Shown one piece after another: positions 2,641 to 46,155 of a stretch of 47,149 bases of DNA. This stretch comes from Escherichia phage JeanPiccard: sequence record MZ501080; one strand, written 5' to 3'. The stretch's first letter is position 1, and the number at the start of each line of letters is the position of its first letter. Made by a program: the position numbers and the translations under genes. The notes below the pieces were generated by a model. That model was not told where the DNA came from and did not search any database. It was given only the letters and a program-made list of their open reading frames with translations.

Positions 2641-3906
2641 ATGGTCAAGACAGACAGCTACGCCAATATCTTTCTAGGCGGCAGTGATGGCAGTGAGATT
2701 TACGGAAGTTTACAGAATCAGGCGCCTACAATTCTGGCTTCGCTTTATGCGGATAATGCACTGGTGCGTCGAATTATAGACACAATCCCTGAAACGGCAT
2801 TGGCGGCAGGATTCCACATTGATGGTATTGATGACGAACCTGCATTCTGGTCACGCTGGGATGACCTGGAAATGACACAGAATATTAACGATGCCTGGTC
2901 ATGGGCGAGATTATTCGGTGGAGCGGCAATTGTCGCTATCGTTAAGGACAATAGAGCGCTAACAAGTCCGGTAAGGGAAGGTGCCGAGCTTGAAACTGTT
3001 CGCGTTTACGACCGTACTCAAGTAAAAGTGCAGACACGCGAGGAGAATCCCCGCAACGCACGTTTTGGCAAGCCTCTGACCTATCGGATCACTACTAATG
3101 AGAGCGATATGTTCTACGATGTGCACTACAGCCGAATTCACATCATTGACGGAGAGCGAGTACCTAACGTAATGCGTCGACAGAATGATGGCTGGGGCCG
3201 TAGCGTTCTTTCCATTGACATCCTTGACTCAATTAAGGATTACACCAAATGCGAACAACTGGCAACTCAGTTGCTGAAGCGTAAGCAGCAAGCGGTCTGG
3301 AAAGTAAAAGATTTAGCCTTGTTGTGTGATGATAGCGAAGGGGTTGGTGCTGCCAGATTGCGACTTGCCCAGGTAGATAACAATAGCGGCGTTGGTCAGG
3401 CGATTGGCATTGACGCTGAATCTGAAGATTACAGCATTCTAAACTCTGATATTGGCGGGATTGATGCGTTCCTGGATAAGAAGTTTGATAGAATCGTTGC
3501 TCTGAGCGGCATTCATGAAATCATCTTGAAGAACAAGAACGTTGGCGGCGTATCATCAAGCCAGAACACAGCACTTGAGACATTCCACAAGCTGGTTGAC
3601 CGCAAGCGCAACTCTGAACTTCTTCCGATTCTTGAGTTCTTAATCCCGTTCATCGTTAACGTTGACGAATGGTCAGTTGAGTTTAATCCTTTAGCTCAGG
3701 AATCAAGCAAGGACAAAGCAGAGATTCTGGAGAAGAACGTAAACAGCATTGCGGCGCTAATTGCAGCTGGCGCTATGGATACTAACGAGGCACGTGATAC
3801 ACTACGAACTATCGCGCCAGAGATTAAGATTTCAGATGGCGATATTGACGCTCAACAACAAGAACCACCAGAGGAGGATGTAATTAATGAGCAAAATCCG
3901 CTATGA
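2641..3906 (+). CDS. portal protein
   Basis: about 420 aa ORF immediately after terL; GGAG RBS before ATG 2641 (track start 2629 is TTG); acidic C-terminus. Confidence 0.8.
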   Translation: MVKTDSYANIFLGGSDGSEIYGSLQNQAPTILASLYADNALVRRIIDTIPETALAAGFHIDGIDDEPAFWSRWDDLEMTQNINDAWSWARLFGGAAIVAIVKDNRALTSPVREGAELETVRVYDRTQVKVQTREENPRNARFGKPLTYRITTNESDMFYDVHYSRIHIIDGERVPNVMRRQNDGWGRSVLSIDILDSIKDYTKCEQLATQLLKRKQQAVWKVKDLALLCDDSEGVGAARLRLAQVDNNSGVGQAIGIDAESEDYSILNSDIGGIDAFLDKKFDRIVALSGIHEIILKNKNVGGVSSSQNTALETFHKLVDRKRNSELLPILEFLIPFIVNVDEWSVEFNPLAQESSKDKAEILEKNVNSIAALIAAGAMDTNEARDTLRTIAPEIKISDGDIDAQQQEPPEEDVINEQNPL

Positions 3907-4978
3907 CAGCGCAAAGGTGAAAGCCAGATTTGATGAAAACGGCTTTCTGGTTGATACCCCGATTGTTGCTCGCGTCGGGGTGCAAACATACTACCTTCCG
4001 GACGGCACAGAACGCAGAGAATTTAGACCAGCCTCAGAGGTCTTTAAACCTGATTCTCTGGCTAGTTATCAGGGAAAGCCAATTACCTTAGGTCATGTGT
4101 TTGTTAACGCAGATAATGCTAAAGAGGTCGTTGTAGGTTCGGTATCTGGCTCGGCAATGCGTGAAGATTCAAATGTGATTGTTCCGCTAACTGTTTACGA
4201 CAAGGAATCAATCGAGAAGGCCAAGAATGGCATCGCTGGTGAGTTGTCAGTAGGCTACCATACTGTTGATATTGAGTCTAAGGGCTGGGGTAGCAACGAA
4301 ACCGGTGAGTATAAGCTGGATGGAGAGTATCAATCACAAGATGAGATTCCTACTGACTGGGTTAGATTTGATGCCCTGCAAACTGAAATTAAGGTAAACC
4401 ACGTCGCCCTGGTATATAAAGGTCGCGCTGGTGTGGCCAAACTTAACTTTGACGCTCAACAGGAAAACCCGTATACTACTGACGTTGATATCAATAAAGA
4501 GGATAAACAGGAAATGACAGTTAAAATTAAACTCGACGGCGCGCAGGAATTCGAAGTTGCCACGGAAATCGCTTCTCACATCGAAGCACTGAACGCAAAG
4601 GCTGACACCGCAATCGCAGAGCGTGATGCGCTGAAAGCTAAAGTAGATGCAATTCCCTCTGAAATCGAGGCAGCCGTAGCTAAAGCTAAAGCTGATGCTG
4701 ACGCCCTGGCGGCACTAGTTGCTGTTGCTGCTGAAGCTGGCGTTAAGGCTGATGGTATGGATGCTAAAGGCATTAAAGTTGCTTACGTTAAAGAAGTCTC
4801 CGGCCTTGATGTTTCTGAGAAATCCGACGCATACATCGACGCAGCGTTCGACATTGCCAAAGAATCTGATAAAATGGCTGAAGTACGTAAAGCGACTACC
4901 GCTTCCGACAAATCTGACAGCGCCAATGAGCCTAAGAAATTAGACCCGCGTGCTCGTTTAGCTAAAATCAAGAAATAA
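3887..4978 (+). CDS. head morphogenesis / scaffold-like protein (possible prohead protease-scaffold fusion)
   Basis: position between portal and capsid genes; Ala/Lys-rich coiled-coil C-terminal half typical of scaffolds; GAGGAGG RBS. Confidence 0.55.
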   Translation: MSKIRYDSAKVKARFDENGFLVDTPIVARVGVQTYYLPDGTERREFRPASEVFKPDSLASYQGKPITLGHVFVNADNAKEVVVGSVSGSAMREDSNVIVPLTVYDKESIEKAKNGIAGELSVGYHTVDIESKGWGSNETGEYKLDGEYQSQDEIPTDWVRFDALQTEIKVNHVALVYKGRAGVAKLNFDAQQENPYTTDVDINKEDKQEMTVKIKLDGAQEFEVATEIASHIEALNAKADTAIAERDALKAKVDAIPSEIEAAVAKAKADADALAALVAVAAEAGVKADGMDAKGIKVAYVKEVSGLDVSEKSDAYIDAAFDIAKESDKMAEVRKATTASDKSDSANEPKKLDPRARLAKIKK

Positions 4979-16280: not shown

Positions 16281-16329
16281 TTAGTGTAGAATGGCACAAA
16301 TGATCAAAACAAACGTGAGGCTTTGTGAT

Positions 16330-19300
16330 ATGGCTGAAGAGATTAAGATTTATGGTGCTAAAGGCGGTAGCCAGAAGCAGCATCAACCAGTGGAGCAGGA
16401 AGATAACCTTATTTCACTTAACAAGGTTAAGGTATTGCTTGCGGTTGCTGACGGAGAGGTGGATCCAAACTTCTCAATGAAGGATTTATACCTTGCTGAC
16501 GTTCCGGTGCAAAACCAGGATGGTAGCTACAACTACGAAGGTGTTCGCGCTGAGTTCCGTGCTGGCACGCAGTATCAGGACTATATCGCTGGCCTTGATG
16601 GTGCAAACTCAGAGATTCAGGCATCCAGAGAAATCACGAACGATACCCCGTATATCATCGCGGTTAACAATACTCAGCTATCAGCAATTCGAGTTAAGCT
16701 ATTTTGGCCTCGACTAGTTAAGCAAGAAAGTAACGGCGACCTGAACGGTACGACATGTGAGTATGCAATTGACCTATCTGTTAATGGTGGAGTATATCAG
16801 GAATACACTCGCGGAGTTGCTAACGGTAAGACAACTACAGGTTACGACCGCAGCATTCGTGTCAACCTTCCGGCAGAGTTTGATAGCGCACTGGTTCGAA
16901 TCCGTAAGATTACGCCAGACTCAACTAGTAGCACGCTGGTCAACGGAATGCAGATTACAACCTATCAGGAAGTAATCGACGCTAAATTCCGCTATCCGCT
17001 TACCGCCCTGGTTTATGTTGAGTTTGGCTCTGACTTGTTCCCTAACGGAATCCCAACAATTTCTATAAAGAAGCGCTGGAAGTTGATTCAGGTACCGACA
17101 AACTACGACCCGGAGACGAGAACTTACAGCGGGACATGGAATGGACTGTTCAAAATGGCATGGTCAAACAACCCAGCTTGGGTTCTTTATGACTTAGTGA
17201 CAAACCGCCGATATGGTCTTGACCAGCGAGAACTAGGTGTAGAGATTGATAAGTGGGGTCTTTACGAGGCTGCGCAATTCTGCGACCAGATGGTGCCGGA
17301 TGGTAAGGGTGGTTTAGAGCCTCGTTATCTTTGCGATATGGTTGTACAGAACAAGGTTGAGGCCTACACGCTAATTCGTGATATCTGTTCAATCTTCCGT
17401 GGTCTGACTTTCTATGATGGAGAAAAGATTGGCATCGTAGTTGATAAGCCTCGTAATCCATCATACATCTTCACGAATGATAACGTTGTAAACGGATTGT
17501 TCAGCCGCACCTTTGCCAGTGATAAGAGTCTTTACACCACTGCAAACGTTCAGTTTGATGATGTTGAGAACAACTATCAGCAGGATGTTGAGCCAGTTTT
17601 TGAACTCGAGGCTACTCGAAGATTTGGCTTTAACCCTGTTGACCTCACGGCTATTGGCTGTACTCGCAGAAGTGAGGCAAACAGGCGCGGCAGGTGGCTC
17701 CTAAAAACCAACCTGAGAAGCGAAACTATCAGCTTCACTACCGGGTTGGAAGGTATGATTCCGATGGTTGGCGAGGTAATTGCGGTCAATGACGCTGCAT
17801 GGTCGAGCAACTATCAGTTAAACCTTTCTGGTCGCATTGAATCAGTTCAGGGATTGCAGGTTTTCACCCCTTTTAAAGTTGACGCAGCGCCTGGTGACAG
17901 AATTCTTCTGAACAAGCCAGACGGAAGTCCAGAGGCAAGAACTATTGCCAGCGTTTCGGAGGATGGAAGAACAATCAACCTTAACACTGCTTTTAGTTTT
18001 GTAGCTCAACCTGACACTGTTTTCGCAATCGATAAGGATAATATCGCGCTTCAACAGTATGTTGTGACCGGGATTCAAAAAGCAGACTCTGATGGTTCGG
18101 ATTCATTTCAGTATACGATTACAGCAGTAGAGTATGACCCGAACAAGTATGACGAGATTGACTACGGGGTTAACATTGTTGACCGTCCAACTTCAATTGT
18201 GGAACCTGACAGATTGTCGCCGCCCGAGAACTTAACAGTATCAAGCTACAGTAAGGTTGTTCAGGGTTTGTCGGTTGAGACGATGGTTATCGGATGGGAT
18301 AAAGCGCCATACGCTAAAACATACAATGTTCAGTGGAGAAAAGAAAATGGCAACTGGATTAACGTACCCAGAACAGCAAGTACAGAGGTTGATATTGAGG
18401 GCATTTACGCAGGAATCTATGACGTTAGGGTTCGCAGCGTATCAGATACTGAAAACGTATCTGCCTGGTCTGACATTGTAACGGTATCGCTAACTGGCAA
18501 GATTGGTCGCCCATCTGCGCCTACGGTTATCACGGCTTCAACTGATGAGGTATTTGGAATTCGTGTTAAGTGGGGTTTCCCTGAAGGATCCGGTGACACT
18601 GCTTACACTGAACTTCAGCAGGTCGCTGATAATGGTGACGGCACTTACAATCCTGATAACGCAAGTTTGCTTACGTTACTGCCGTACCCAGCATATGAAT
18701 ACTGGCACACGCCAATTCAGCCAGGAAAGGTTATCTGGTATCGCGCTAGATTGATCGACAGAATAGGTAATACCTCTGATTGGTCTGACTTTGCTAGAGG
18801 TATGAGCACTGACGATGCCAACATCATCAACGATTACATCAAAGTTGATATTGAAGGCTCAGAAGGATTCAAATATCTCGAGCAGAATGCGATTCAAAAG
18901 AATCAGGACATTCAGAATCAAGCTGAGGCAATTATCGAGAACGCATTAGCTAATGACACTGATGTTCGTCGCATGACTAAGGAGAACGGAAAACGTAAGG
19001 CTGAATATGTTCAGGCAGTGAATCTCATAGCTGATGAAACTCAGGCGCGTGTGGAGGCTCTCACGGCCCTTAAAGCACAGATAGATGATGAGATTGTTGG
19101 TCAGATTACGACTATTGAAACGGCGCTGGCTACAGAGACTGAAGCTAGAGCTACGGCTGACACTCAGCTATCAGCAAGGATTGGTGATAACGAGGCGGCG
19201 CTAAACCAGAAGCTAGACGCTTTTGCTAACGCTGAGTCAACTGGAGTTCAGTATGGGATTAGTTTGGGCCTTAACTATAATGGTCAGACTTATTCATCCG

Positions 19301-19701
19301 GCATGAGCATGGAGCTAGTTGGTACTGGTGGTAATGTTCGTAGTCAGTTCATCTTTGACGCAAACAGATTCGCTATCAGTAACGGTATTGGTTCTGGTTC
19401 CGGTCAGTGGCAGCTGCCCTTTGTTGTCGAGAACGGAAACGTAATCATCCAGAGCGCAGTAATCGGTGACGGTTCAATCAGTAACGCTAAGATTGGTAAC
19501 TTTATTCAGTCTAACAACTACGTAGCAGGAACTACAGGTTGGAGGATTGATAAGTCTGGAAACGCCGAGATTCACGGAAGGCTGTACGCCAACAGTGGGG
19601 AGTTCGCTTTTAATGGAACAAACAACACAGTACAGATTAACGGTAACGGAATCACAGTAAACTTACCTGGAGGTGGAAGAGTTGTGGTAGGTACGTTCTA
19701 A
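16330..19701 (+). CDS. central tail fiber / host specificity protein (lambda J-like)
   Basis: clear similarity to lambda J by eye (PTNYDPETRTYSGTWNGLFKMAWSNNPAWVLYDLVTNRRYG versus lambda PSNYNPQTRQYSGIWDGTFKPAYSNNMAWCLWDMLTHPRYG); alternative ATG at 16291. Confidence 0.9.
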   Translation: MAEEIKIYGAKGGSQKQHQPVEQEDNLISLNKVKVLLAVADGEVDPNFSMKDLYLADVPVQNQDGSYNYEGVRAEFRAGTQYQDYIAGLDGANSEIQASREITNDTPYIIAVNNTQLSAIRVKLFWPRLVKQESNGDLNGTTCEYAIDLSVNGGVYQEYTRGVANGKTTTGYDRSIRVNLPAEFDSALVRIRKITPDSTSSTLVNGMQITTYQEVIDAKFRYPLTALVYVEFGSDLFPNGIPTISIKKRWKLIQVPTNYDPETRTYSGTWNGLFKMAWSNNPAWVLYDLVTNRRYGLDQRELGVEIDKWGLYEAAQFCDQMVPDGKGGLEPRYLCDMVVQNKVEAYTLIRDICSIFRGLTFYDGEKIGIVVDKPRNPSYIFTNDNVVNGLFSRTFASDKSLYTTANVQFDDVENNYQQDVEPVFELEATRRFGFNPVDLTAIGCTRRSEANRRGRWLLKTNLRSETISFTTGLEGMIPMVGEVIAVNDAAWSSNYQLNLSGRIESVQGLQVFTPFKVDAAPGDRILLNKPDGSPEARTIASVSEDGRTINLNTAFSFVAQPDTVFAIDKDNIALQQYVVTGIQKADSDGSDSFQYTITAVEYDPNKYDEIDYGVNIVDRPTSIVEPDRLSPPENLTVSSYSKVVQGLSVETMVIGWDKAPYAKTYNVQWRKENGNWINVPRTASTEVDIEGIYAGIYDVRVRSVSDTENVSAWSDIVTVSLTGKIGRPSAPTVITASTDEVFGIRVKWGFPEGSGDTAYTELQQVADNGDGTYNPDNASLLTLLPYPAYEYWHTPIQPGKVIWYRARLIDRIGNTSDWSDFARGMSTDDANIINDYIKVDIEGSEGFKYLEQNAIQKNQDIQNQAEAIIENALANDTDVRRMTKENGKRKAEYVQAVNLIADETQARVEALTALKAQIDDEIVGQITTIETALATETEARATADTQLSARIGDNEAALNQKLDAFANAESTGVQYGISLGLNYNGQTYSSGMSMELVGTGGNVRSQFIFDANRFAISNGIGSGSGQWQLPFVVENGNVIIQSAVIGDGSISNAKIGNFIQSNNYVAGTTGWRIDKSGNAEIHGRLYANSGEFAFNGTNNTVQINGNGITVNLPGGGRVVVGTF

Positions 19702-19706
19702 AATAA

Positions 19707-19725
19707 AAGCCCCGAAAGGGGCTTT
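19707..19725. terminator. bidirectional terminator between convergent J and minus-strand operon
   Basis: hairpin AAAGCCCCgaaaGGGGCTTT flanked by A-run and T-run. Confidence 0.6.
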
Positions 19726-19729
19726 GTCT

Positions 19730-20662
19730 TTAATACATGTCTGGAAGGTAAGGCAATGGAGTGGATATTGTTACGTCAGGTCTGTTTCCAATCTCATATC
19801 TTACAATCCTTGATCCAGTTCCCGATCGAACATAACCATTACTCATTACGATTCCTTTGTTTCTTAACTCCTTGTAAGCTGGAATTGCCCTGGTGTTAAA
19901 TCCGCATCTTAATATTGGGAAGTAGGATTCGCCAATATACTGATTGCTACCTGATAGGTTTATGAATCCAGAAACAACCAACGGCCTTGTAACGGTTGAT
20001 AAAGTGCAAACACCATTAGAGTTAAATATGTTCAATCCGGGTCCTGGTATTGGCGCAACCATCTGAAAAATAATCAAGTCCATAGTGACACTTCCAGGAG
20101 TGTCTCCAGTATCTTCAGTGTTTATGTTTGTGCATATCAGTTGATTGCTCCCGTTGTATTCAACCGAGACGCCGGAGTTATTCCACTTTCCAAATGGTAT
20201 CCCATAAATTGGCAGCGTGTATGTGTTGGTGAAAGATATCCTCTGAGCAAACTTGCACACCAACAACCTGTCAGTGGTGGTTATCGAAGTAAAATCTGTG
20301 CTATTGGCAACATAAATACCCTGACCAGTAGATGCTCTTAGTACCTCAACAACAGTACCAGAAAATTGAGTTATACGGTCAGAATATCCATTCTCATAGC
20401 CAATCGATATTGTTCCGCTTGATGCTGTTGATGAGAATCCATTTATGTAGTAAACCTCAACGCCCCTATCAAGTTCGAATGAGTAGGCACCATTATTAGG
20501 GATTAGGAACCTTGACGCTCCTTCATTACCCTGGATTGAAAAAGTTTTGCTAAATCCACCACTAGAAACGTTGAAGTTGCCAGCAAAGTTCAAGGCACGC
20601 ATCCCTGCGGTTATTGTCATTGGCTTTCTTCCGTCATTGAGGTCTATATAAATACCTTGAGC
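19730..20662 (-). CDS. hypothetical beta-rich protein co-transcribed with lipoprotein (possible receptor-binding or exclusion partner)
   Basis: 310 aa from ATG 20662 (AAGGAG RBS, TAATG overlap with upstream gene); Gly/Ser/Thr/Asn-rich. Confidence 0.45.
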   Translation of the reverse strand, partial: AQGIYIDLNDGRKPMTITAGMRALNFAGNFNVSSGGFSKTFSIQGNEGASRFLIPNNGAYSFELDRGVEVYYINGFSSTASSGTISIGYENGYSDRITQFSGTVVEVLRASTGQGIYVANSTDFTSITTTDRLLVCKFAQRISFTNTYTLPIYGIPFGKWNNSGVSVEYNGSNQLICTNINTEDTGDTPGSVTMDLIIFQMVAPIPGPGLNIFNSNGVCTLSTVTRPLVVSGFINLSGSNQYIGESYFPILRCGFNTRAIPAYKELRNKGIVMSNGYVRSGTGSRIVRYEIGNRPDVTISTPLPYLPDMY

Positions 20663-20664
20663 CA

Positions 20665-20895
20665 TTAATTCCACTCCTTAGAACCATAATCACGAACGGA
20701 CCCACTGGAGCCTTTAATTCCATCGTAGCGAATATCAATTTCACCAGCCGGAACAATTACGCCGCTTTTCCATTTAGCTACGCACACTCCGTTTGAGGAT
20801 GTAGCGCACCAACCATCTGGGCGAGGACCAGATGAGCAGCCTACCATCATGATTGCTGCTGCGGAGATGATTACTGATTTGATGAAGTTATTCAT
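20665..20895 (-). CDS. lipoprotein, Cor-like superinfection exclusion candidate
   Basis: signal peptide [19 protein letters not shown] followed by Cys (lipobox MVGC); about 76 aa; adjacent to tail genes. Confidence 0.55.
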
Positions 20896-20960
20896 TTTTA
20901 AGTCCTTATTAAGTTTTCTCGTTTCGATGTGGTAATGATAACTCATCCCTGCGGATTGTC

Positions 20961-20978
20961 TTTAGCAATTCGTGCTAT
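20961..20978 (-). promoter_or_regulatory. dyad motif (minus orientation, copy d) overlapping methyltransferase stop codon
   Basis: TTTAGCAATTCGTGCTAT is the reverse complement of ATAGCACGAATTGCTAAA. Confidence 0.4.
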
Positions 20979-21651
20979 TTGCAATGAAAACCGCCCTTGC
21001 GAATCCTCTCGGTGTAAGACTGCGGACTACCTTCGTTTTCTTACTCTTACCGCCTAGCTTCTTGTATTGGTCTGAGAATCCGTCATTAACAGGCACGGGA
21101 ATAGCATCAGGCCATTTAAACCCATTGCCAGACCAAATACATGTCTTCTTAGGATATGCGTCGCGAGGCTTTATTAGGTCGCTAAAAAACGGGTGTAAAT
21201 CATCTTCCGGCAAATAGCCTCCGTATTCGTAAGGGTGGAAAGTGTTATCAGGCTTTCGCCAAAGTGATGAAAGTACGCTTATCGGGTTCTCAATCATGTA
21301 TGGCACTTGGTACTTATTAGCCAGGTTAAAGGCAACTTTACACGCTTCAGCAGCTTCAATTTGGAAATTGGGGTTAGCAAGGCGCTTGCGCTCAAAGTGT
21401 CTTGACCCGCTCACCGCTAAATCCGTACAGGGCGGGAATGCCAAAATGAAATCAGGCTTCACATTAAAATCGAAGTCAGCATCTATCCATGCGTTAACAT
21501 AGGTGATGTTGTGATGCTCAACCTTTGCATTTAAGTCACCGTAGCTCCCATGGTCAGAATCATCAAAGTTGAAACAGTAGCAAGTGTGACCAGCTTCAGC
21601 CCAATCTTTCACCGCAAGACCAGAGCCATCAAATAAAGACCAGATAACCAT
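20962..21651 (-). CDS. DNA C5-cytosine methyltransferase (short Dcm-like)
   Basis: motif I-like LFDGSG, PC motif FPPCTDLAVSG, ENV-like MIENPIS. Confidence 0.65.
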   Translation of the reverse strand: MVIWSLFDGSGLAVKDWAEAGHTCYCFNFDDSDHGSYGDLNAKVEHHNITYVNAWIDADFDFNVKPDFILAFPPCTDLAVSGSRHFERKRLANPNFQIEAAEACKVAFNLANKYQVPYMIENPISVLSSLWRKPDNTFHPYEYGGYLPEDDLHPFFSDLIKPRDAYPKKTCIWSGNGFKWPDAIPVPVNDGFSDQYKKLGGKSKKTKVVRSLTPRGFARAVFIANSTNC

Positions 21652-22034
21652 TTTACAATCCTCTCTCGTTGTTTGTGCGACTAACTATACCAGGTTTTGC
21701 GTCTGAGTTTTAGCTATTCGTGCTATTGCATACACGTAACAGATGTAACTTGATGTATACAATCTAATCCGCGGAAAATGATATACGCCAAGTTACGCAT
21801 GGTTACGCTATATTTACATTAAAATATCTATATATATCAACCATTTACTCTTATTATTATTATTATATATATTACTGTGTATATCATGTAACTACCTCTA
21901 TAGAGTGTTCCGGTTGCAATTTTAATATCATGTGGATTTATACAGTGTTGCACGGTGCTATACCAATGCACCCTCAGCAATAAATGATATACACGATATA
22001 CACACTAGTTACATTGAGCTATAGCTGATCTGAG
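21652..22034. promoter_or_regulatory. AT-rich divergent control region 1 (iteron-like repeats; candidate early promoters or origin)
   Basis: no ORFs; (ATT)n tract, GATATACAC tandem repeat, GTAAC/GTTAC and GTATAC repeats, TACACGTAAC; about 75 bp homologous to 40887..40960. Confidence 0.45.
21708..21726 (-). promoter_or_regulatory. dyad motif (minus orientation, copy e) upstream of methyltransferase gene
   Basis: TTTAGCTATTCGTGCTAT; followed on minus strand by TATAGT and leader before ATG 21651. Confidence 0.4.
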
Positions 22035-23545: not shown

Positions 23546-24010
23546 ATGAACAAAGATTGCTGGCAGACTCCTTTAGAGTTATTTAAACCAATAGATGAAA
23601 AATACAACTTCGAGGTTGACGTATGTGCCAGTCCAGAGAACGCGCTTTGTGAATACTTCTGGACCGTAGATGATGACTGCTTGCAACAGGATTGGGGTGA
23701 TGATGGCGGTTTCGTTTGGTGTAATCCACCATATAGCAATCCATTACCATTTGTTGAAAAGTGCCAGCAATACGGATATGCAGTCATGCTATTGAATCAG
23801 GATACGTCAACAAAATGGGCTAAGATAGTCTTTGAAAAAGCATCAAAGGTTATACTTTTATCAGACAGGGTTAGATTTATAAATCCAGTAACACTTGAGG
23901 TTGGCAAGTCAAACCCAAAATGCCAGATGATTGTTGTTTTCGACAAGAGCAGTAATACTGGTGTTGATATACGCTGGTGCTCAATAAAAGAAATTCATAA
24001 GCACATATAA
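23546..24010 (+). CDS. dam: phage-type DNA N6-adenine methyltransferase (Dam-like)
   Basis: WQTP N-terminus and catalytic NPPY motif (WCNPPYS); about 154 aa, typical of the small phage Dam family. Confidence 0.8.
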   Translation: MNKDCWQTPLELFKPIDEKYNFEVDVCASPENALCEYFWTVDDDCLQQDWGDDGGFVWCNPPYSNPLPFVEKCQQYGYAVMLLNQDTSTKWAKIVFEKASKVILLSDRVRFINPVTLEVGKSNPKCQMIVVFDKSSNTGVDIRWCSIKEIHKHI

Positions 24011-25544: not shown

Positions 25545-28073
25545 TTAACCTATCTTAGTATAAGTCCATTGGTATGTTGCAGCGCCCTGTGCAGTTATCC
25601 CGACAGTTCTTCCGCTTACATCCATTGAAGTGAAAACGCCAGTTTTTGTAATTGTTATTGATGATGTTGTACCATCAAAAAGTACATCAGCAATTACACT
25701 ATAGTTAGCCCCGGCCCCAGTAACCCAGGTCGAAACCTTGTATAAACCTGCGTTGTTTGGCAACTCAAAAAGACCAGTTGAAACATTAGCCTGAACAGCC
25801 ATAGCGCCCTTTCCGGTGTATACACCGTCAGTTTTAAGTCCTAATGATGAATACGTTTGCTTATAACCGCCAACGATCATGCCACCCATTGGTTCAGTAA
25901 ACCAGTTCACATTACCCTGACTAACAACCGATATAGCAGGAGAGCCACCTTTAGCTGACTGGAACCTACCGCTCAAAACGTCAATTCTAGATGTTGAATC
26001 CTGGGCGTAGATAGTTACAGGATACCCACCAGAACCAGTGTAAACCAAGCCGTTATCATTAATATCATCTTCAGATGAGTCAATGATTACATGGGAAGTT
26101 CCAGACGCCTTGATGTACGAAACAACACCACCGGAACCAGCGCCTGTTGTTCTAACTTCATTCTTCCATGATGTTAGGCCTGAAATCCTGCCATTTGAGT
26201 TATTAAACCTAATCAGGCAACAATCCTGAGAACCGTTCGTGTCAATAATGTTACCTTCGACGTCCATTCCCAGTATGTTTACGCTATGACTGTTAATAAA
26301 GTTAATTCCAGCACCACCGTAAGAACCAGATGTTGATGATATATTGCTGGCATCCATTGCGCAGTTAATCATCGTCACGCTCATCACTGAACCAAATTCA
26401 TAAGGTGAAATGCAATCTGATGCGTAACAAGTCTCAAGCAATATTGTCGTCCCAGTCGCCTTGATGAATCCCGTCCTGCAATTCCTGGCCCAAACATTCT
26501 GTAACTTAGTTTGGTATGTTCCAGTGGTATCCGTGTAACAGCCCCACGCTCCATGTACCGTGCAATCTTTGATGCATGAATTTTCCAGACCAGTTGCAGA
26601 ACCAACATTAGAAACGAAGTTAAATGCTATCTTTTGATCATTCCCTGGTGCTGAGGTAGGCGTAGTGCCTGGGTTATAAAAAATGTAAAGTCCCTCAATA
26701 AACACTTGATACATTCTTATGTTTTGCGCATCACCCTGAACCAGGGCAAACAGGTTAATGTTCCCATCAACTGAGATAAATGCTTGCGCCCTGTTAATTT
26801 GGTCTGTCCCCTCCCCAATAATTCTTGTGCTGTTCCCAATCCTTACCGTCCTGTTAATAAACATAAAACCTTTTGGTATGTATACAGTTTTACCGGTATT
26901 AACTGCCGCCTGAAGCGCAACTGAGTCAAGTGACTCATTAAGGTTTGATGCAAATGGATAAACAGCCCGTGCAGCCTCAATTGTAGAGAATTTAGATGAC
27001 AGCGGAACTAAAGTGCCATTGTTTGTAGCACCAAAATCCATGACGTTAACAAAGTCACCAAGTTTACTTTCCTTGCTCCTTTCTACAGATGAGGTCAATG
27101 TCGATTTGTAATTCATCGAACTGAATCGTGATTGAGCCTCAGTCGTTGAATAAACATCAAGCAGACCCCTTACCCTTAAGGCGCTGGATCCACCAGTAGC
27201 TCCATCTCCACCAGGAACGCTTAGAAGTTCCCTTACATAAAAATTCCTAGAACCAGTAGCTCCAGTAATGGTAATTTCCGCAACCCTAAAAACGGCGTTT
27301 GAGGTTGTAGAAGGAGAAATTCTTACTACGTTACTTCCATTAACACCACGCGTCGCAAGAACATCAATACAAATAGTAGTGTTTGTCGCCGGGAACATTG
27401 AACTTAAGGCTGACGGAATGTTAACCATGTTTGCAATTTTGCACTGGTAGCTACCACCTGAATAAAATTGCATTGTCTGCCAGTCAAGGGATGTAAGCAG
27501 TGGTGTTGTAGTACTTCCTATGCCGTGTTCTGCAAAGTAAGCCACTGCGGCCGTATTCCCAGCTGCATTTATTGCGTTAACGGTTCTGTTGTATGAGTTC
27601 AGTGCATTATTGCTAGCACCAACGGCAGTTGATGCACTTTCTGCGGCAGAAATTTGACTAGCAAGTGCCTCTGCAGCTCCGGTAGTTGACTGAGTTGCTA
27701 ACTGTTCAAATCGAGGCCAATCGAAGGTGTCTTGACCAATAAATTGCAGCAATCCTTCGATGGATGTCTCCTTTGACTGATAGTAACGCAGAGTCTCAGC
27801 AACATTCTGAGCTAAACCCGGAGCGGTAATCCCATCGTGCGCAAGAATCGCGTAACCAGTTCCGGCAGGAACAGTTTCAGAGTTAGGGTTATAAACATTA
27901 ATCTTAGTGTCGCTGACAATTTCCGAGATGGCGTAGATCTTTATCGGGTTAGTTTTGAAAATGATAGTAGCACCTACGCGAATCAGTGTAAGCGGTGCTT
28001 TCCATGTTGTACCAACACCAGTTACCTCTCCATTCGCGGCTAGTGACGCTGTTCCTAAGTCATAAATTGCCAT
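25545..28073 (-). CDS. tail fiber / tailspike with beta-helix (pectate-lyase-like) domain
   Basis: 842 aa from ATG 28073; conserved fiber N-terminus MAIYDLGTASLAANGEVTG; central VMDFGATNNG plus repetitive Gly/Asn/Ser/Thr beta-helix-like region. Confidence 0.75.
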   Translation of the reverse strand: MAIYDLGTASLAANGEVTGVGTTWKAPLTLIRVGATIIFKTNPIKIYAISEIVSDTKINVYNPNSETVPAGTGYAILAHDGITAPGLAQNVAETLRYYQSKETSIEGLLQFIGQDTFDWPRFEQLATQSTTGAAEALASQISAAESASTAVGASNNALNSYNRTVNAINAAGNTAAVAYFAEHGIGSTTTPLLTSLDWQTMQFYSGGSYQCKIANMVNIPSALSSMFPATNTTICIDVLATRGVNGSNVVRISPSTTSNAVFRVAEITITGATGSRNFYVRELLSVPGGDGATGGSSALRVRGLLDVYSTTEAQSRFSSMNYKSTLTSSVERSKESKLGDFVNVMDFGATNNGTLVPLSSKFSTIEAARAVYPFASNLNESLDSVALQAAVNTGKTVYIPKGFMFINRTVRIGNSTRIIGEGTDQINRAQAFISVDGNINLFALVQGDAQNIRMYQVFIEGLYIFYNPGTTPTSAPGNDQKIAFNFVSNVGSATGLENSCIKDCTVHGAWGCYTDTTGTYQTKLQNVWARNCRTGFIKATGTTILLETCYASDCISPYEFGSVMSVTMINCAMDASNISSTSGSYGGAGINFINSHSVNILGMDVEGNIIDTNGSQDCCLIRFNNSNGRISGLTSWKNEVRTTGAGSGGVVSYIKASGTSHVIIDSSEDDINDNGLVYTGSGGYPVTIYAQDSTSRIDVLSGRFQSAKGGSPAISVVSQGNVNWFTEPMGGMIVGGYKQTYSSLGLKTDGVYTGKGAMAVQANVSTGLFELPNNAGLYKVSTWVTGAGANYSVIADVLFDGTTSSITITKTGVFTSMDVSGRTVGITAQGAATYQWTYTKIG

Positions 28074-28097
28074 TGTGTAAAGTCTCCATTTGTAAAA

Positions 28098-28115
28098 TAG
28101 CACGATTTGCTAAAG
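28098..28115 (+). promoter_or_regulatory. dyad motif TAGCACgattTGCTAAAG (family copy g)
   Basis: located between tail fiber start and primase terminator, plus orientation. Confidence 0.3.
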
Positions 28116-35511: not shown

Positions 35512-35589
35512 GTGCTTCTTTTACGAGCAGGGCTAATGTATCATTCTTTTACTAACTTAAACATTGACAAATACATAAAGGTGGATCAC

Positions 35590-35805
35590 ATGAGGGAAGT
35601 AATTAACGCCGCTACGGCATCAACTGGCGGTGCCGCGGTAACTGGCGCAGCAACTGGTCAAATGACCATAGCAATAATCAGTCTTATCGCTCTTATCATT
35701 TTTGGTGCGTGGGGGGCTTACTGGAAGTATAAGGACAGCCAGGCGATTCGCAGAGCACTTGAGTCGGGAGATTTAAAGACAGCAATCAAGATAAGGAGCA
35801 AATAA
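35590..35805 (+). CDS. holin (single-TM, pinholin-like)
   Basis: 71 aa from ATG 35590 (AAAGGTGG RBS); one TM segment MTIAIISLIALIIFGAWGAYW; charged C-terminus; precedes endolysin. Confidence 0.6.
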   Translation: MREVINAATASTGGAAVTGAATGQMTIAIISLIALIIFGAWGAYWKYKDSQAIRRALESGDLKTAIKIRSK

Positions 35806-36291
35806 ATGAAGCAGAAGCTGCTAATTAGCGCGGCTACGGCTGCGGCAATATACATCGCAGCACCGCTTATTGAGCTCGTTGAGGGTGTGGAGAACGAGAC
35901 TTACATAGACATTGCCGGGGTGAAAACCGTATGCGCAGGTGTCACTGGCCCTGACGTGGTTTGGGGTAAAACATACAGCAACAGTGAATGCCGGAAGCTG
36001 CTGGAGAAACACATTCAAATTCACGCAAAGCATGTTCAGAATGCAGTTACCCACCCAATTGCACCGCAGACAATGGCGGCTTTAATCAGTTTTAGCTACA
36101 ACGTTGGCGGTCATGCCATGAAGAATTCAACGGCAATCCGACTAATCAATCAGGGTAAAGTGGAGCAGGGTTGCAAGGCTCTCGGGATGTGGACAAAGGC
36201 TACCGTTAATGGCAAGAAGGTTGTCGTTAAGGGGTTAGTGAATCGCAGGAATGAGGAGATTAAGTTATGCTTAAGTGGGTTGCAGCGTTAG
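35806..36291 (+). CDS. endolysin, lysozyme-like with N-terminal SAR (signal-anchor-release) domain
   Basis: weakly hydrophobic Ala/Gly-rich N-terminus LLISAATAAAIYIAAPLI followed by lysozyme catalytic region ENETYID...T. Confidence 0.8.
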   Translation: MKQKLLISAATAAAIYIAAPLIELVEGVENETYIDIAGVKTVCAGVTGPDVVWGKTYSNSECRKLLEKHIQIHAKHVQNAVTHPIAPQTMAALISFSYNVGGHAMKNSTAIRLINQGKVEQGCKALGMWTKATVNGKKVVVKGLVNRRNEEIKLCLSGLQR

Positions 36292-36656
36292 TAATGTGCG
36301 TATCTTTATCTGGATGTTCAGCGACTGATGCACTGACCGGATTGATTGGCAGTAAGCCGGAAATTAGTGCGCAGGCTGGTGCAGAGAATAACAAGGTTGG
36401 AGTTGGGTTAACGAATAAGGTTGACTCAAGTAACTCCAGCGAAGCCACTGTGAAAGACTCTAAAGTTGGCTCGCTAGATAGCTCAAGCGGGAAAAAGACT
36501 GCTGACAACTCTATTAAGGCATCTACAATCACCGCGGAAAAGATTGAGATTACCAACAACGAATCATCCGCACTTCCGTGGATTGGAACTGGAGCAATGG
36601 GGTTGCTGGTTCTGATTCTCATGGCATTAATCTTAAGACGTAAAAAAGCCTCCTAA
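36267..36656 (+). CDS. unimolecular spanin (u-spanin, T1 gp11-like)
   Basis: N-terminal lipoprotein signal with lipobox LSGC, Ser/Thr-rich periplasmic region, C-terminal TM GAMGLLVLILMALIL then RRKKAS. Confidence 0.7.
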   Translation: MLKWVAALVMCVSLSGCSATDALTGLIGSKPEISAQAGAENNKVGVGLTNKVDSSNSSEATVKDSKVGSLDSSSGKKTADNSIKASTITAEKIEITNNESSALPWIGTGAMGLLVLILMALILRRKKAS

Positions 36657-46077: not shown

Positions 46078-46155
46078 GCTCTGCTAGCTCAACAGGACAG
46101 CAGCAACGACCTTCTAAGTCGTAGGTTACTGGTTCGAATCCAGTGCGGAGCGCCA
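46078..46155 (+). tRNA. tRNA-Arg(TCT): tRNA-Arg (anticodon UCU), CCA encoded
   Basis: manual cloverleaf: acceptor GCTCTGC/GCGGAGC (one G-U pair), anticodon stem ACGAC/GTCGT with loop CTTCTAA, T-arm ACTGG-TTCGAAT-CCAGT, discriminator G, then CCA. Confidence 0.7.

Follow-up and report, generated by a model that had tools for sequence, protein, structure and literature searches.

The gene pair convergent on the J-like gene of Escherichia phage JeanPiccard is very probably an LptD-type receptor-binding protein locus

Rtp45, the small lipoprotein of phage Rtp, is said to have been first proposed as Cor-like in the original Rtp genome paper of Wietzorrek et al. in 2006. In small siphoviruses, allelic variants of a locus downstream of gpJ have been matched to each terminal receptor, and the locus was proposed to encode both a dedicated receptor-binding protein (RBP), seated non-covalently on the J-like protein, and the exclusion protein that goes with it (Maffei et al. 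2021, PMC8594841). AugustePiccard, JeanPiccard, TheodorHerzl, Oekolampad and others lost infectivity on spontaneous in-frame deletion mutants of lptD (PMC8594841), and the LptD-type RBP locus has been found in Drexlerviridae, Dhillonvirus and Queuovirinae (PMC8594841; PMC12685063). A screen of 255 phages linked this RBP family, at >30% identity, specifically to LptD (10.64898/2026.04.02.716166). The RBP of Oekolampad has been solved on the extracellular face of Shigella LptDE (PDB 9RPT, 9RPW and 9RQI; Dunbar et al. 2025, PMC12685063), where it inserts deep into an open state of the LptD barrel; in vitro the complex with LptDE formed slowly and only partially (PMC12685063). AlphaFold3 predictions of the complexes of these proteins with LptDE were reported to be wrong (PMC12685063). 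Cryo-EM placed Rtp45 on the periplasmic side of LptDE, between LptE and LptM (9RPS), with a disulfide joining Cys30 to Cys38, a hairpin extending up the LptD lumen, an interface of ~1,000 Å2 with LptDE, and a lipid anchor assigned to the three N-terminal residues unseen in the map (PMC12685063). In that position Rtp45 displaces extracellular loop 4 of LptD by up to 20 Å, which is incompatible with RBP binding (PMC12685063). The two systems are themselves diverged, the RBPs (RBP-Oeko and Rtp44) being 33% identical and the lipoproteins 35% (PMC12685063).

JeanPiccard was analysed over a stretch of 47,149 nucleotides (sequence record MZ501080; hereafter the window) and groups, as do Escherichia phages BEK3 and BEK2 and AugustePiccard (Bas01), within the subfamily Braunvirinae of the Drexlerviridae. 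Its nucleotide sequence is ~86% identical to BEK3 and BEK2 over ~90% of the first 25 kb, and slightly less so to AugustePiccard. The gene order common to these three relatives is J, then a convergent gene for 311 aa, a gene for 76 aa that overlaps it by 1 nt, and a Dcm-like methyltransferase gene. The corresponding features of JeanPiccard are as follows.

16291-19701, plus strand: gene of a J-like tail tip protein (1136 aa; PF24801, PF13550 and PF09327; phrog_31)
19706-19725, both strands: putative bidirectional intrinsic terminator hairpin (pattern match only)
19730-20665, minus strand: gene of a predicted receptor-binding protein (311 aa; DUF6453, PF20051; Rtp44 orthologue)
20663-20667, minus strand: TAATG stop/start overlap, seen in the sequence
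20665-20895, minus strand: gene of a predicted superinfection-exclusion lipoprotein (76 aa; PF24052; Rtp45 orthologue)

The lipoprotein ORF opens with the ATG at 20895 and closes with a stop at 20667-20665, with a Shine-Dalgarno sequence (AAGGA) 6 nt 5' of the start; an alternative ATG at 20946 would yield a lipoprotein of 93 aa, but the homologues all use the start that gives 76 aa. The RBP ORF runs from the ATG at 20665 to a stop at 19732-19730 and is preceded at 8 nt by AAGGAG, within the lipoprotein gene; the GTG at 20674, which would make a 314-aa version, is unused by the homologues, all of which start M-x-x-G-I. With the RBP beginning at 20665, the TAATG is a one-base overlap of the two genes, an arrangement that allows translational coupling from the lipoprotein gene to the RBP gene. 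The layout thus agrees with the original prediction of a 76-aa lipoprotein with lipobox MVGC (20895..20665, minus strand, with Cys20 in M-V-G-C), of its TAATG junction with a partner gene, and of a partner downstream of and convergent with the J-like gene (28 nt between the two stops); the location and strand of the partner ORF were also as predicted, and only its length, given as 310 aa, becomes 311 aa. The spacer between the J-like and RBP genes contains a hairpin, AAAGCCCC-GAAA-GGGGCTTT, with an 8-bp stem that includes five GC pairs, a GAAA loop, and T-runs on either strand; as a pattern match only, it resembles a bidirectional terminator between the two genes. Relative to BEK3, at dS ~0.6, dN/dS was 0.03 for the RBP gene, 0.17 for the lipoprotein gene and 0.09 for the upstream methyltransferase gene (the lipoprotein rows of contigs L008 and L011, which were out of frame, were left out of the calculation). 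The ratios of 0.03 and 0.17, with the full-length Pfam matches described below, identify both ORFs as real genes and not chance ORFs.

The Dcm-like methyltransferase gene (phrog_757; 20962-21651, minus strand) lies directly upstream of the lipoprotein gene and is probably in the same transcript; a search for sigma-70 promoters 5' of the lipoprotein gene returned one 9/12 match (20962-20935), and the matches in this upstream region were fewer than the shuffle mean. In BEK3 and AugustePiccard the leftward genes continue upstream of the methyltransferase gene with a gene for a Roi-like DNA-binding protein, to which AugustePiccard adds two more small genes. A 383-bp AT-rich intergenic region (21652-22034) separates the leftward methyltransferase, lipoprotein and RBP genes from rightward recombination genes, and a second DNA methyltransferase gene (phrog_111; 23546-24010, plus strand) is found on the other flank of this divergent region. 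The intergenic region holds several inverted repeats (such as 21745-21759/21782-21796) and no ORF of at least 40 aa with a family match. A candidate operator motif within it, ATGTAACTNNNTNTATA, was dropped as not significant against shuffled sequence (four matches in the window versus 1.5 expected, with 5 of 100 shuffles reaching four).

By inspection, residues 1-19 of the lipoprotein form a signal peptide, in which K6 is the sole basic residue of the n-region and residues 7-18 make up a 12-residue hydrophobic core (Kyte-Doolittle 2.5), ahead of the lipidation residue Cys20 in M-V-G-C; Ser21 rather than Asp occupies the +2 position, the sequence after Cys20 begins SSGP, and the C-terminus is KEWN. 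According to the +2 rule of Lol sorting, serine at +2 directs a lipoprotein to the outer membrane, and on account of Ser21 the protein is predicted to be sorted there. It matches PF24052 (Phage_lipoprotein) over its full length (E = 2.3e-36, 124 bits against a cut-off of 27 bits, with residues 1-75 on profile positions 1-80 of 80), and is identical to Rtp45 (chain 9rps_D of PDB 9RPS) at 64 of 76 positions (84%), or 50 of 57 (88%) within the mature part, and 82% identical to bas01_0029 of AugustePiccard. The MVGC box is the same as that of Rtp45, and Cys20, Cys30 and Cys38 are all kept. By these comparisons the 76-aa protein is classed as an orthologue of the exclusion lipoprotein Rtp45, and by analogy with Rtp45 it would exclude superinfecting phage in vivo; no in-vivo exclusion assay for Rtp45 itself was found in the literature searched, where this role is argued from structure and analogy.

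The 311-aa protein, whose role the original prediction had left as unknown, can be assigned by both homology and fold. It matches PF20051 (DUF6453) over the full length of the profile (E = 4e-119, 397.7 bits against a cut-off of 25 bits, with residues 4-291 on profile positions 1-290 of 291), and is 80% identical to the RBP of AugustePiccard (bas01_0028) over 311 of 311 residues, 88% identical to the homologue in TheodorHerzl, 97% to that in BEK3 and 98% to that in P818. An LptD-type RBP was defined by identity of >30% at approximately full coverage to RBPs of experimentally LptD-dependent phages, and the values for AugustePiccard (80%) and TheodorHerzl (88%) are well above that threshold. The more distant Oekolampad RBP (chain 9rpt_C) was matched by phmmer with E = 1.6e-40. 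AlphaFold2, run on an alignment of 24 sequences, gave an all-beta model (pLDDT 82, pTM 0.83), and in a Foldseek search of the PDB the model's sole significant match was 9rpt_C (E = 5e-17, rmsd 2.2 Å, TM 0.89 as normalised to the target), the next match having E = 0.16. The 311-aa sequence lacks both a signal peptide and transmembrane segments (maximum Kyte-Doolittle value over 19 residues, 1.29), as expected for a virion protein. The idea of superinfection exclusion or receptor masking therefore carries over to the lipoprotein (84% identical to Rtp45) and not to its partner, which is predicted to bind LptD from a seat at the distal end of the J-like tail tip protein; since the partner is the receptor-binding protein itself, the cassette is read as an RBP with its cognate exclusion factor.

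Conservation in the RBP family is greatest at the N terminus (M-x-x-G-I-x-I-x-x-x-D-G-R-x-x-M-x-I-T-x-G), at NSTDFT (residues 121-126) and at the C-terminal P-x-M-Y, and invariant residues have been mapped to the base of the protein (Black et al., PMC13035648). Because the conserved N terminus and residues 113-127 are also where the model has its lowest confidence, we infer that the base docks onto J and may become ordered only on assembly. PHROG 1265 lists the family as 'membrane protein; moron, auxiliary metabolic gene and host takeover', and GenBank records name the homologues 'membrane protein' or 'hypothetical protein'. With no hydrophobic segment in the protein and homology to a virion RBP, the PHROG 1265 label is unsupported; it appears to be a carried-over annotation, and a misleading one.

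The pairing of the two genes extends beyond the close relatives of JeanPiccard. In an HMM search, a gene for a PF24052-type lipoprotein was found directly upstream of the DUF6453 gene in 19 of the 79 viral contigs that carry DUF6453, all 19 being 43-51 kb in length, and those that could be tied to named records are lytic small siphoviruses (L010, with the exact Rtp45 sequence; L014, DTL; L068, Shfl1). The spacing of the genes is nearly constant: of the 16 pairs measured, 14 overlap by 1 nt and the other two are 2 nt apart. A prophage in an E. coli chromosome has the same convergent arrangement of J, lipoprotein and DUF6453 genes, again with the 1-nt overlap. Approximately 60 prophage-type contigs (L021-L064, L069 and L071-L086; mostly genome-derived records) have no PF24052 homologue within 3 kb of their DUF6453 gene, the product of which begins MPEGI in every case, so that DUF6453 membership alone does not fix the receptor. 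One of these, L027, has J at 224-2992, the DUF6453 gene at 3001-3960 on the same strand immediately after it, and then a tail fibre gene from 3938, which, judging by its neighbours, is plainly a structural-gene context.

In an intermediate group of pairs (L013-L020), the mature lipoprotein is 66-77% identical to that of JeanPiccard where the RBP is only 40-47% identical, which suggests that the periplasm-facing lipoprotein evolves more slowly than the surface-facing RBP and may confer broad cross-exclusion among LptD phages. From this difference in identity it may be conjectured that one lipoprotein could exclude many LptD-binding phages with widely differing RBPs, and from its translational coupling to a structural gene, that it may serve mainly late in infection, shielding progeny from debris that carries LptD, rather than in early exclusion; the conjecture is a tentative one, with the balance of likelihood against it.

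The closest described systems, rtp44/rtp45 of Rtp and bas01_0028/bas01_0029 of AugustePiccard, share with the JeanPiccard locus both Pfam families, their order, the 1-nt overlap, convergence on gpJ, the lengths of 311 and 76 aa, the Cys20 lipobox, and Cys30 and Cys38, the RBPs being 80% identical and the lipoproteins 82-84%. They differ from it in residues 33-35 of the lipoprotein, which are SSN in JeanPiccard versus QAS, within a strand reported to pair with residues 318-323 of LptD; in JeanPiccard, moreover, the methyltransferase gene is not preceded by a Roi-like DNA-binding gene. Oekolampad (Bas18) has an RBP of the same fold, family and receptor class, which is however only 22% identical to that of JeanPiccard over the Foldseek structural alignment, and the LptD-contacting Gln299 of RBP-Oeko aligns with Gly in JeanPiccard. 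The J-like protein, which matches phrog_31 (central tail fiber J) and is presumed to be the docking platform for the RBP, is 91% identical to the J protein of AugustePiccard (bas01_0027) and nearly identical to it in the last ~150 residues. It differs in lacking a 33-aa insert that AugustePiccard has after residue 929 (region 18970-19260, residues ~895-990), and the ~35 residues before the insert site have diverged. AugustePiccard is reported to need NupG as well as LptD, and the NupG-specific segment of its GpJ is in roughly this part of the protein (bioRxiv 10.64898/2026.04.02.716166); with the insert missing near that segment, JeanPiccard may be free of the NupG co-requirement. Elsewhere in the window, an 852-aa lateral tail fibre (25545-28103, minus strand), of which the N-terminal ~370 residues are conserved and the C-terminal part is distinct (phrog_8649), is probably the O-antigen or primary-receptor determinant. 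A lone tRNA-Arg gene (anticodon TCT) is located at 46078-46155 on the plus strand, as reported for related T1-like O157 phages, for which virion proteomics lists seven structural proteins (PMC4070988).

More distant parallels are functional. T5 pb5 and Llp are likewise a tail-tip RBP and a small periplasm-facing outer-membrane lipoprotein that binds the same receptor from the inside and keeps the RBP from binding, encoded by adjacent genes, but their receptor, FhuA, is a TonB-dependent transporter, and no sequence or fold kinship was detected: Llp and pb5 chains were absent from the PDB sequence matches of both proteins and from the 50 listed fold matches of the RBP model. The pb5 and Llp genes are transcribed divergently. 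The resemblance is a functional one only, and the mechanisms differ as well, with Llp acting by long-range allostery and Rtp45 by physical displacement of a loop (PMC12685063). Cor of T1, phi80 and N15 is a small outer-membrane lipoprotein encoded beside tail tip genes and acts in exclusion at the receptor, but belongs to another family and has FhuA as its target. The kinship with Cor and Llp that had been suggested for the JeanPiccard lipoprotein was not upheld: its match to phrog_1119 has E = 0.071 and covers residues 7-30, the signal peptide, alone, and there was no match to the Cor family in Pfam, NCBIfam or PADLOC, the last two of which gave no matches at all for either the lipoprotein or the RBP. 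FhuA or another TonB-dependent protein as the receptor fares no better, the RBP being 80-88% identical to those of LptD-dependent phages and Rtp45 having been seen on LptDE; the assay against FhuA-dependent phages and colicins that had been proposed would most likely give a negative result even if the idea of exclusion is right.

The gene structure, families, close orthology, fold, conserved pairing and purifying selection described above were observed directly in this analysis, and the locus is very probably the LptD-type 'bona fide RBP locus' of small siphoviruses, a pair of the rtp44/rtp45 kind. Points that count against this reading include the coupling of an exclusion gene, expected to be early, to a structural gene, expected to be late, and the additional requirement for NupG reported in AugustePiccard, the closest well-studied relative, besides the slow and partial formation of the Oekolampad RBP complex and the DUF6453 genes that have no PF24052 lipoprotein nearby. 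Three other explanations were weighed. The two proteins might jointly form a receptor-masking or exclusion module in the infected cell, the 311-aa protein being the membrane-associated partner of the lipoprotein, as the PHROG 1265 label and the translational coupling of the two genes would have it; this is very unlikely for a protein that has neither signal peptide nor hydrophobic segment and that matches, in sequence and fold, a phage RBP solved on the extracellular face of LptDE, and the prophage-type loci that have DUF6453 without a nearby lipoprotein gene, between J and a tail fibre gene in L027, argue in the same direction by placing the large protein in a structural context. The small lipoprotein, for its part, might serve in lysis as an o-spanin or in assembly of the RBP, being a small outer-membrane lipoprotein, as o-spanins are, and co-translated with a structural protein. 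The chance of this is negligible: the window has a complete cassette of holin, endolysin and Rz-like spanin genes at 35512-36656, 15 kb away, which rules out the spanin role, and there is no i-spanin partner at the lipoprotein locus; a lipoprotein in the periplasm cannot act as chaperone to a virion protein in the cytoplasm; and the orthologue Rtp45 binds LptDE stably (~1,000 Å2) and alters the RBP site.

The remaining alternative accepts an RBP and its exclusion partner but directs them elsewhere, to some other outer-membrane protein or to the LptD variant of another host. Horizontal exchange of RBP alleles at this locus has been reported, and the nucleotide identity between the RBP genes of JeanPiccard and AugustePiccard, 72% where flanking genes are at 83-87%, is consistent with it; one fifth of the RBP residues differ from those of verified LptD binders, and family membership alone, as in the prophage members of DUF6453, does not fix the receptor. 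Set against this, the 255-phage screen ties the RBP family, at >30% identity, specifically to LptD, the RBP is 80-88% identical to verified cases, and the mature lipoprotein is 88% identical to one seen on LptDE, so that another target is quite improbable. LptD as the terminal receptor of JeanPiccard, and attachment of its RBP to J, are accordingly carried over from these relatives as the expected condition.

If the locus of JeanPiccard works as an LptD-type RBP locus, the 311-aa virion protein would use its conserved N-terminal base to sit, non-covalently, on the C-terminal tip of the J-like protein, and its loop-bearing end would enter the extracellular face of LptD, the LPS translocon of the outer membrane; this insertion would constitute irreversible adsorption and lead to DNA ejection. 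In the infected cell, the lipoprotein and the RBP would be translated from one leftward mRNA ending at the bidirectional terminator. The 76-aa protein would be exported by the Sec pathway, lipidated on Cys20 and delivered to the inner leaflet of the outer membrane, from where it would bind the periplasmic side of LptDE and push a beta-hairpin up the LptD lumen. Extracellular loop 4 of LptD, held in a raised position by the lipoprotein, would then block RBP binding, and infected cells and their debris would no longer adsorb JeanPiccard or other LptD-binding phages.

The nature of this gene pair was already known, having been predicted in 2021 and given a structure in 2025, and current understanding is unchanged. 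In annotation, LptD-binding receptor-binding protein and LptDE-binding superinfection-exclusion lipoprotein can replace 'hypothetical protein' as names for the two products, and the PHROG label of the larger one should be dropped. The terminal receptor of JeanPiccard can be predicted to be LptD, an essential, conserved protein relevant to phage therapy and phage steering.
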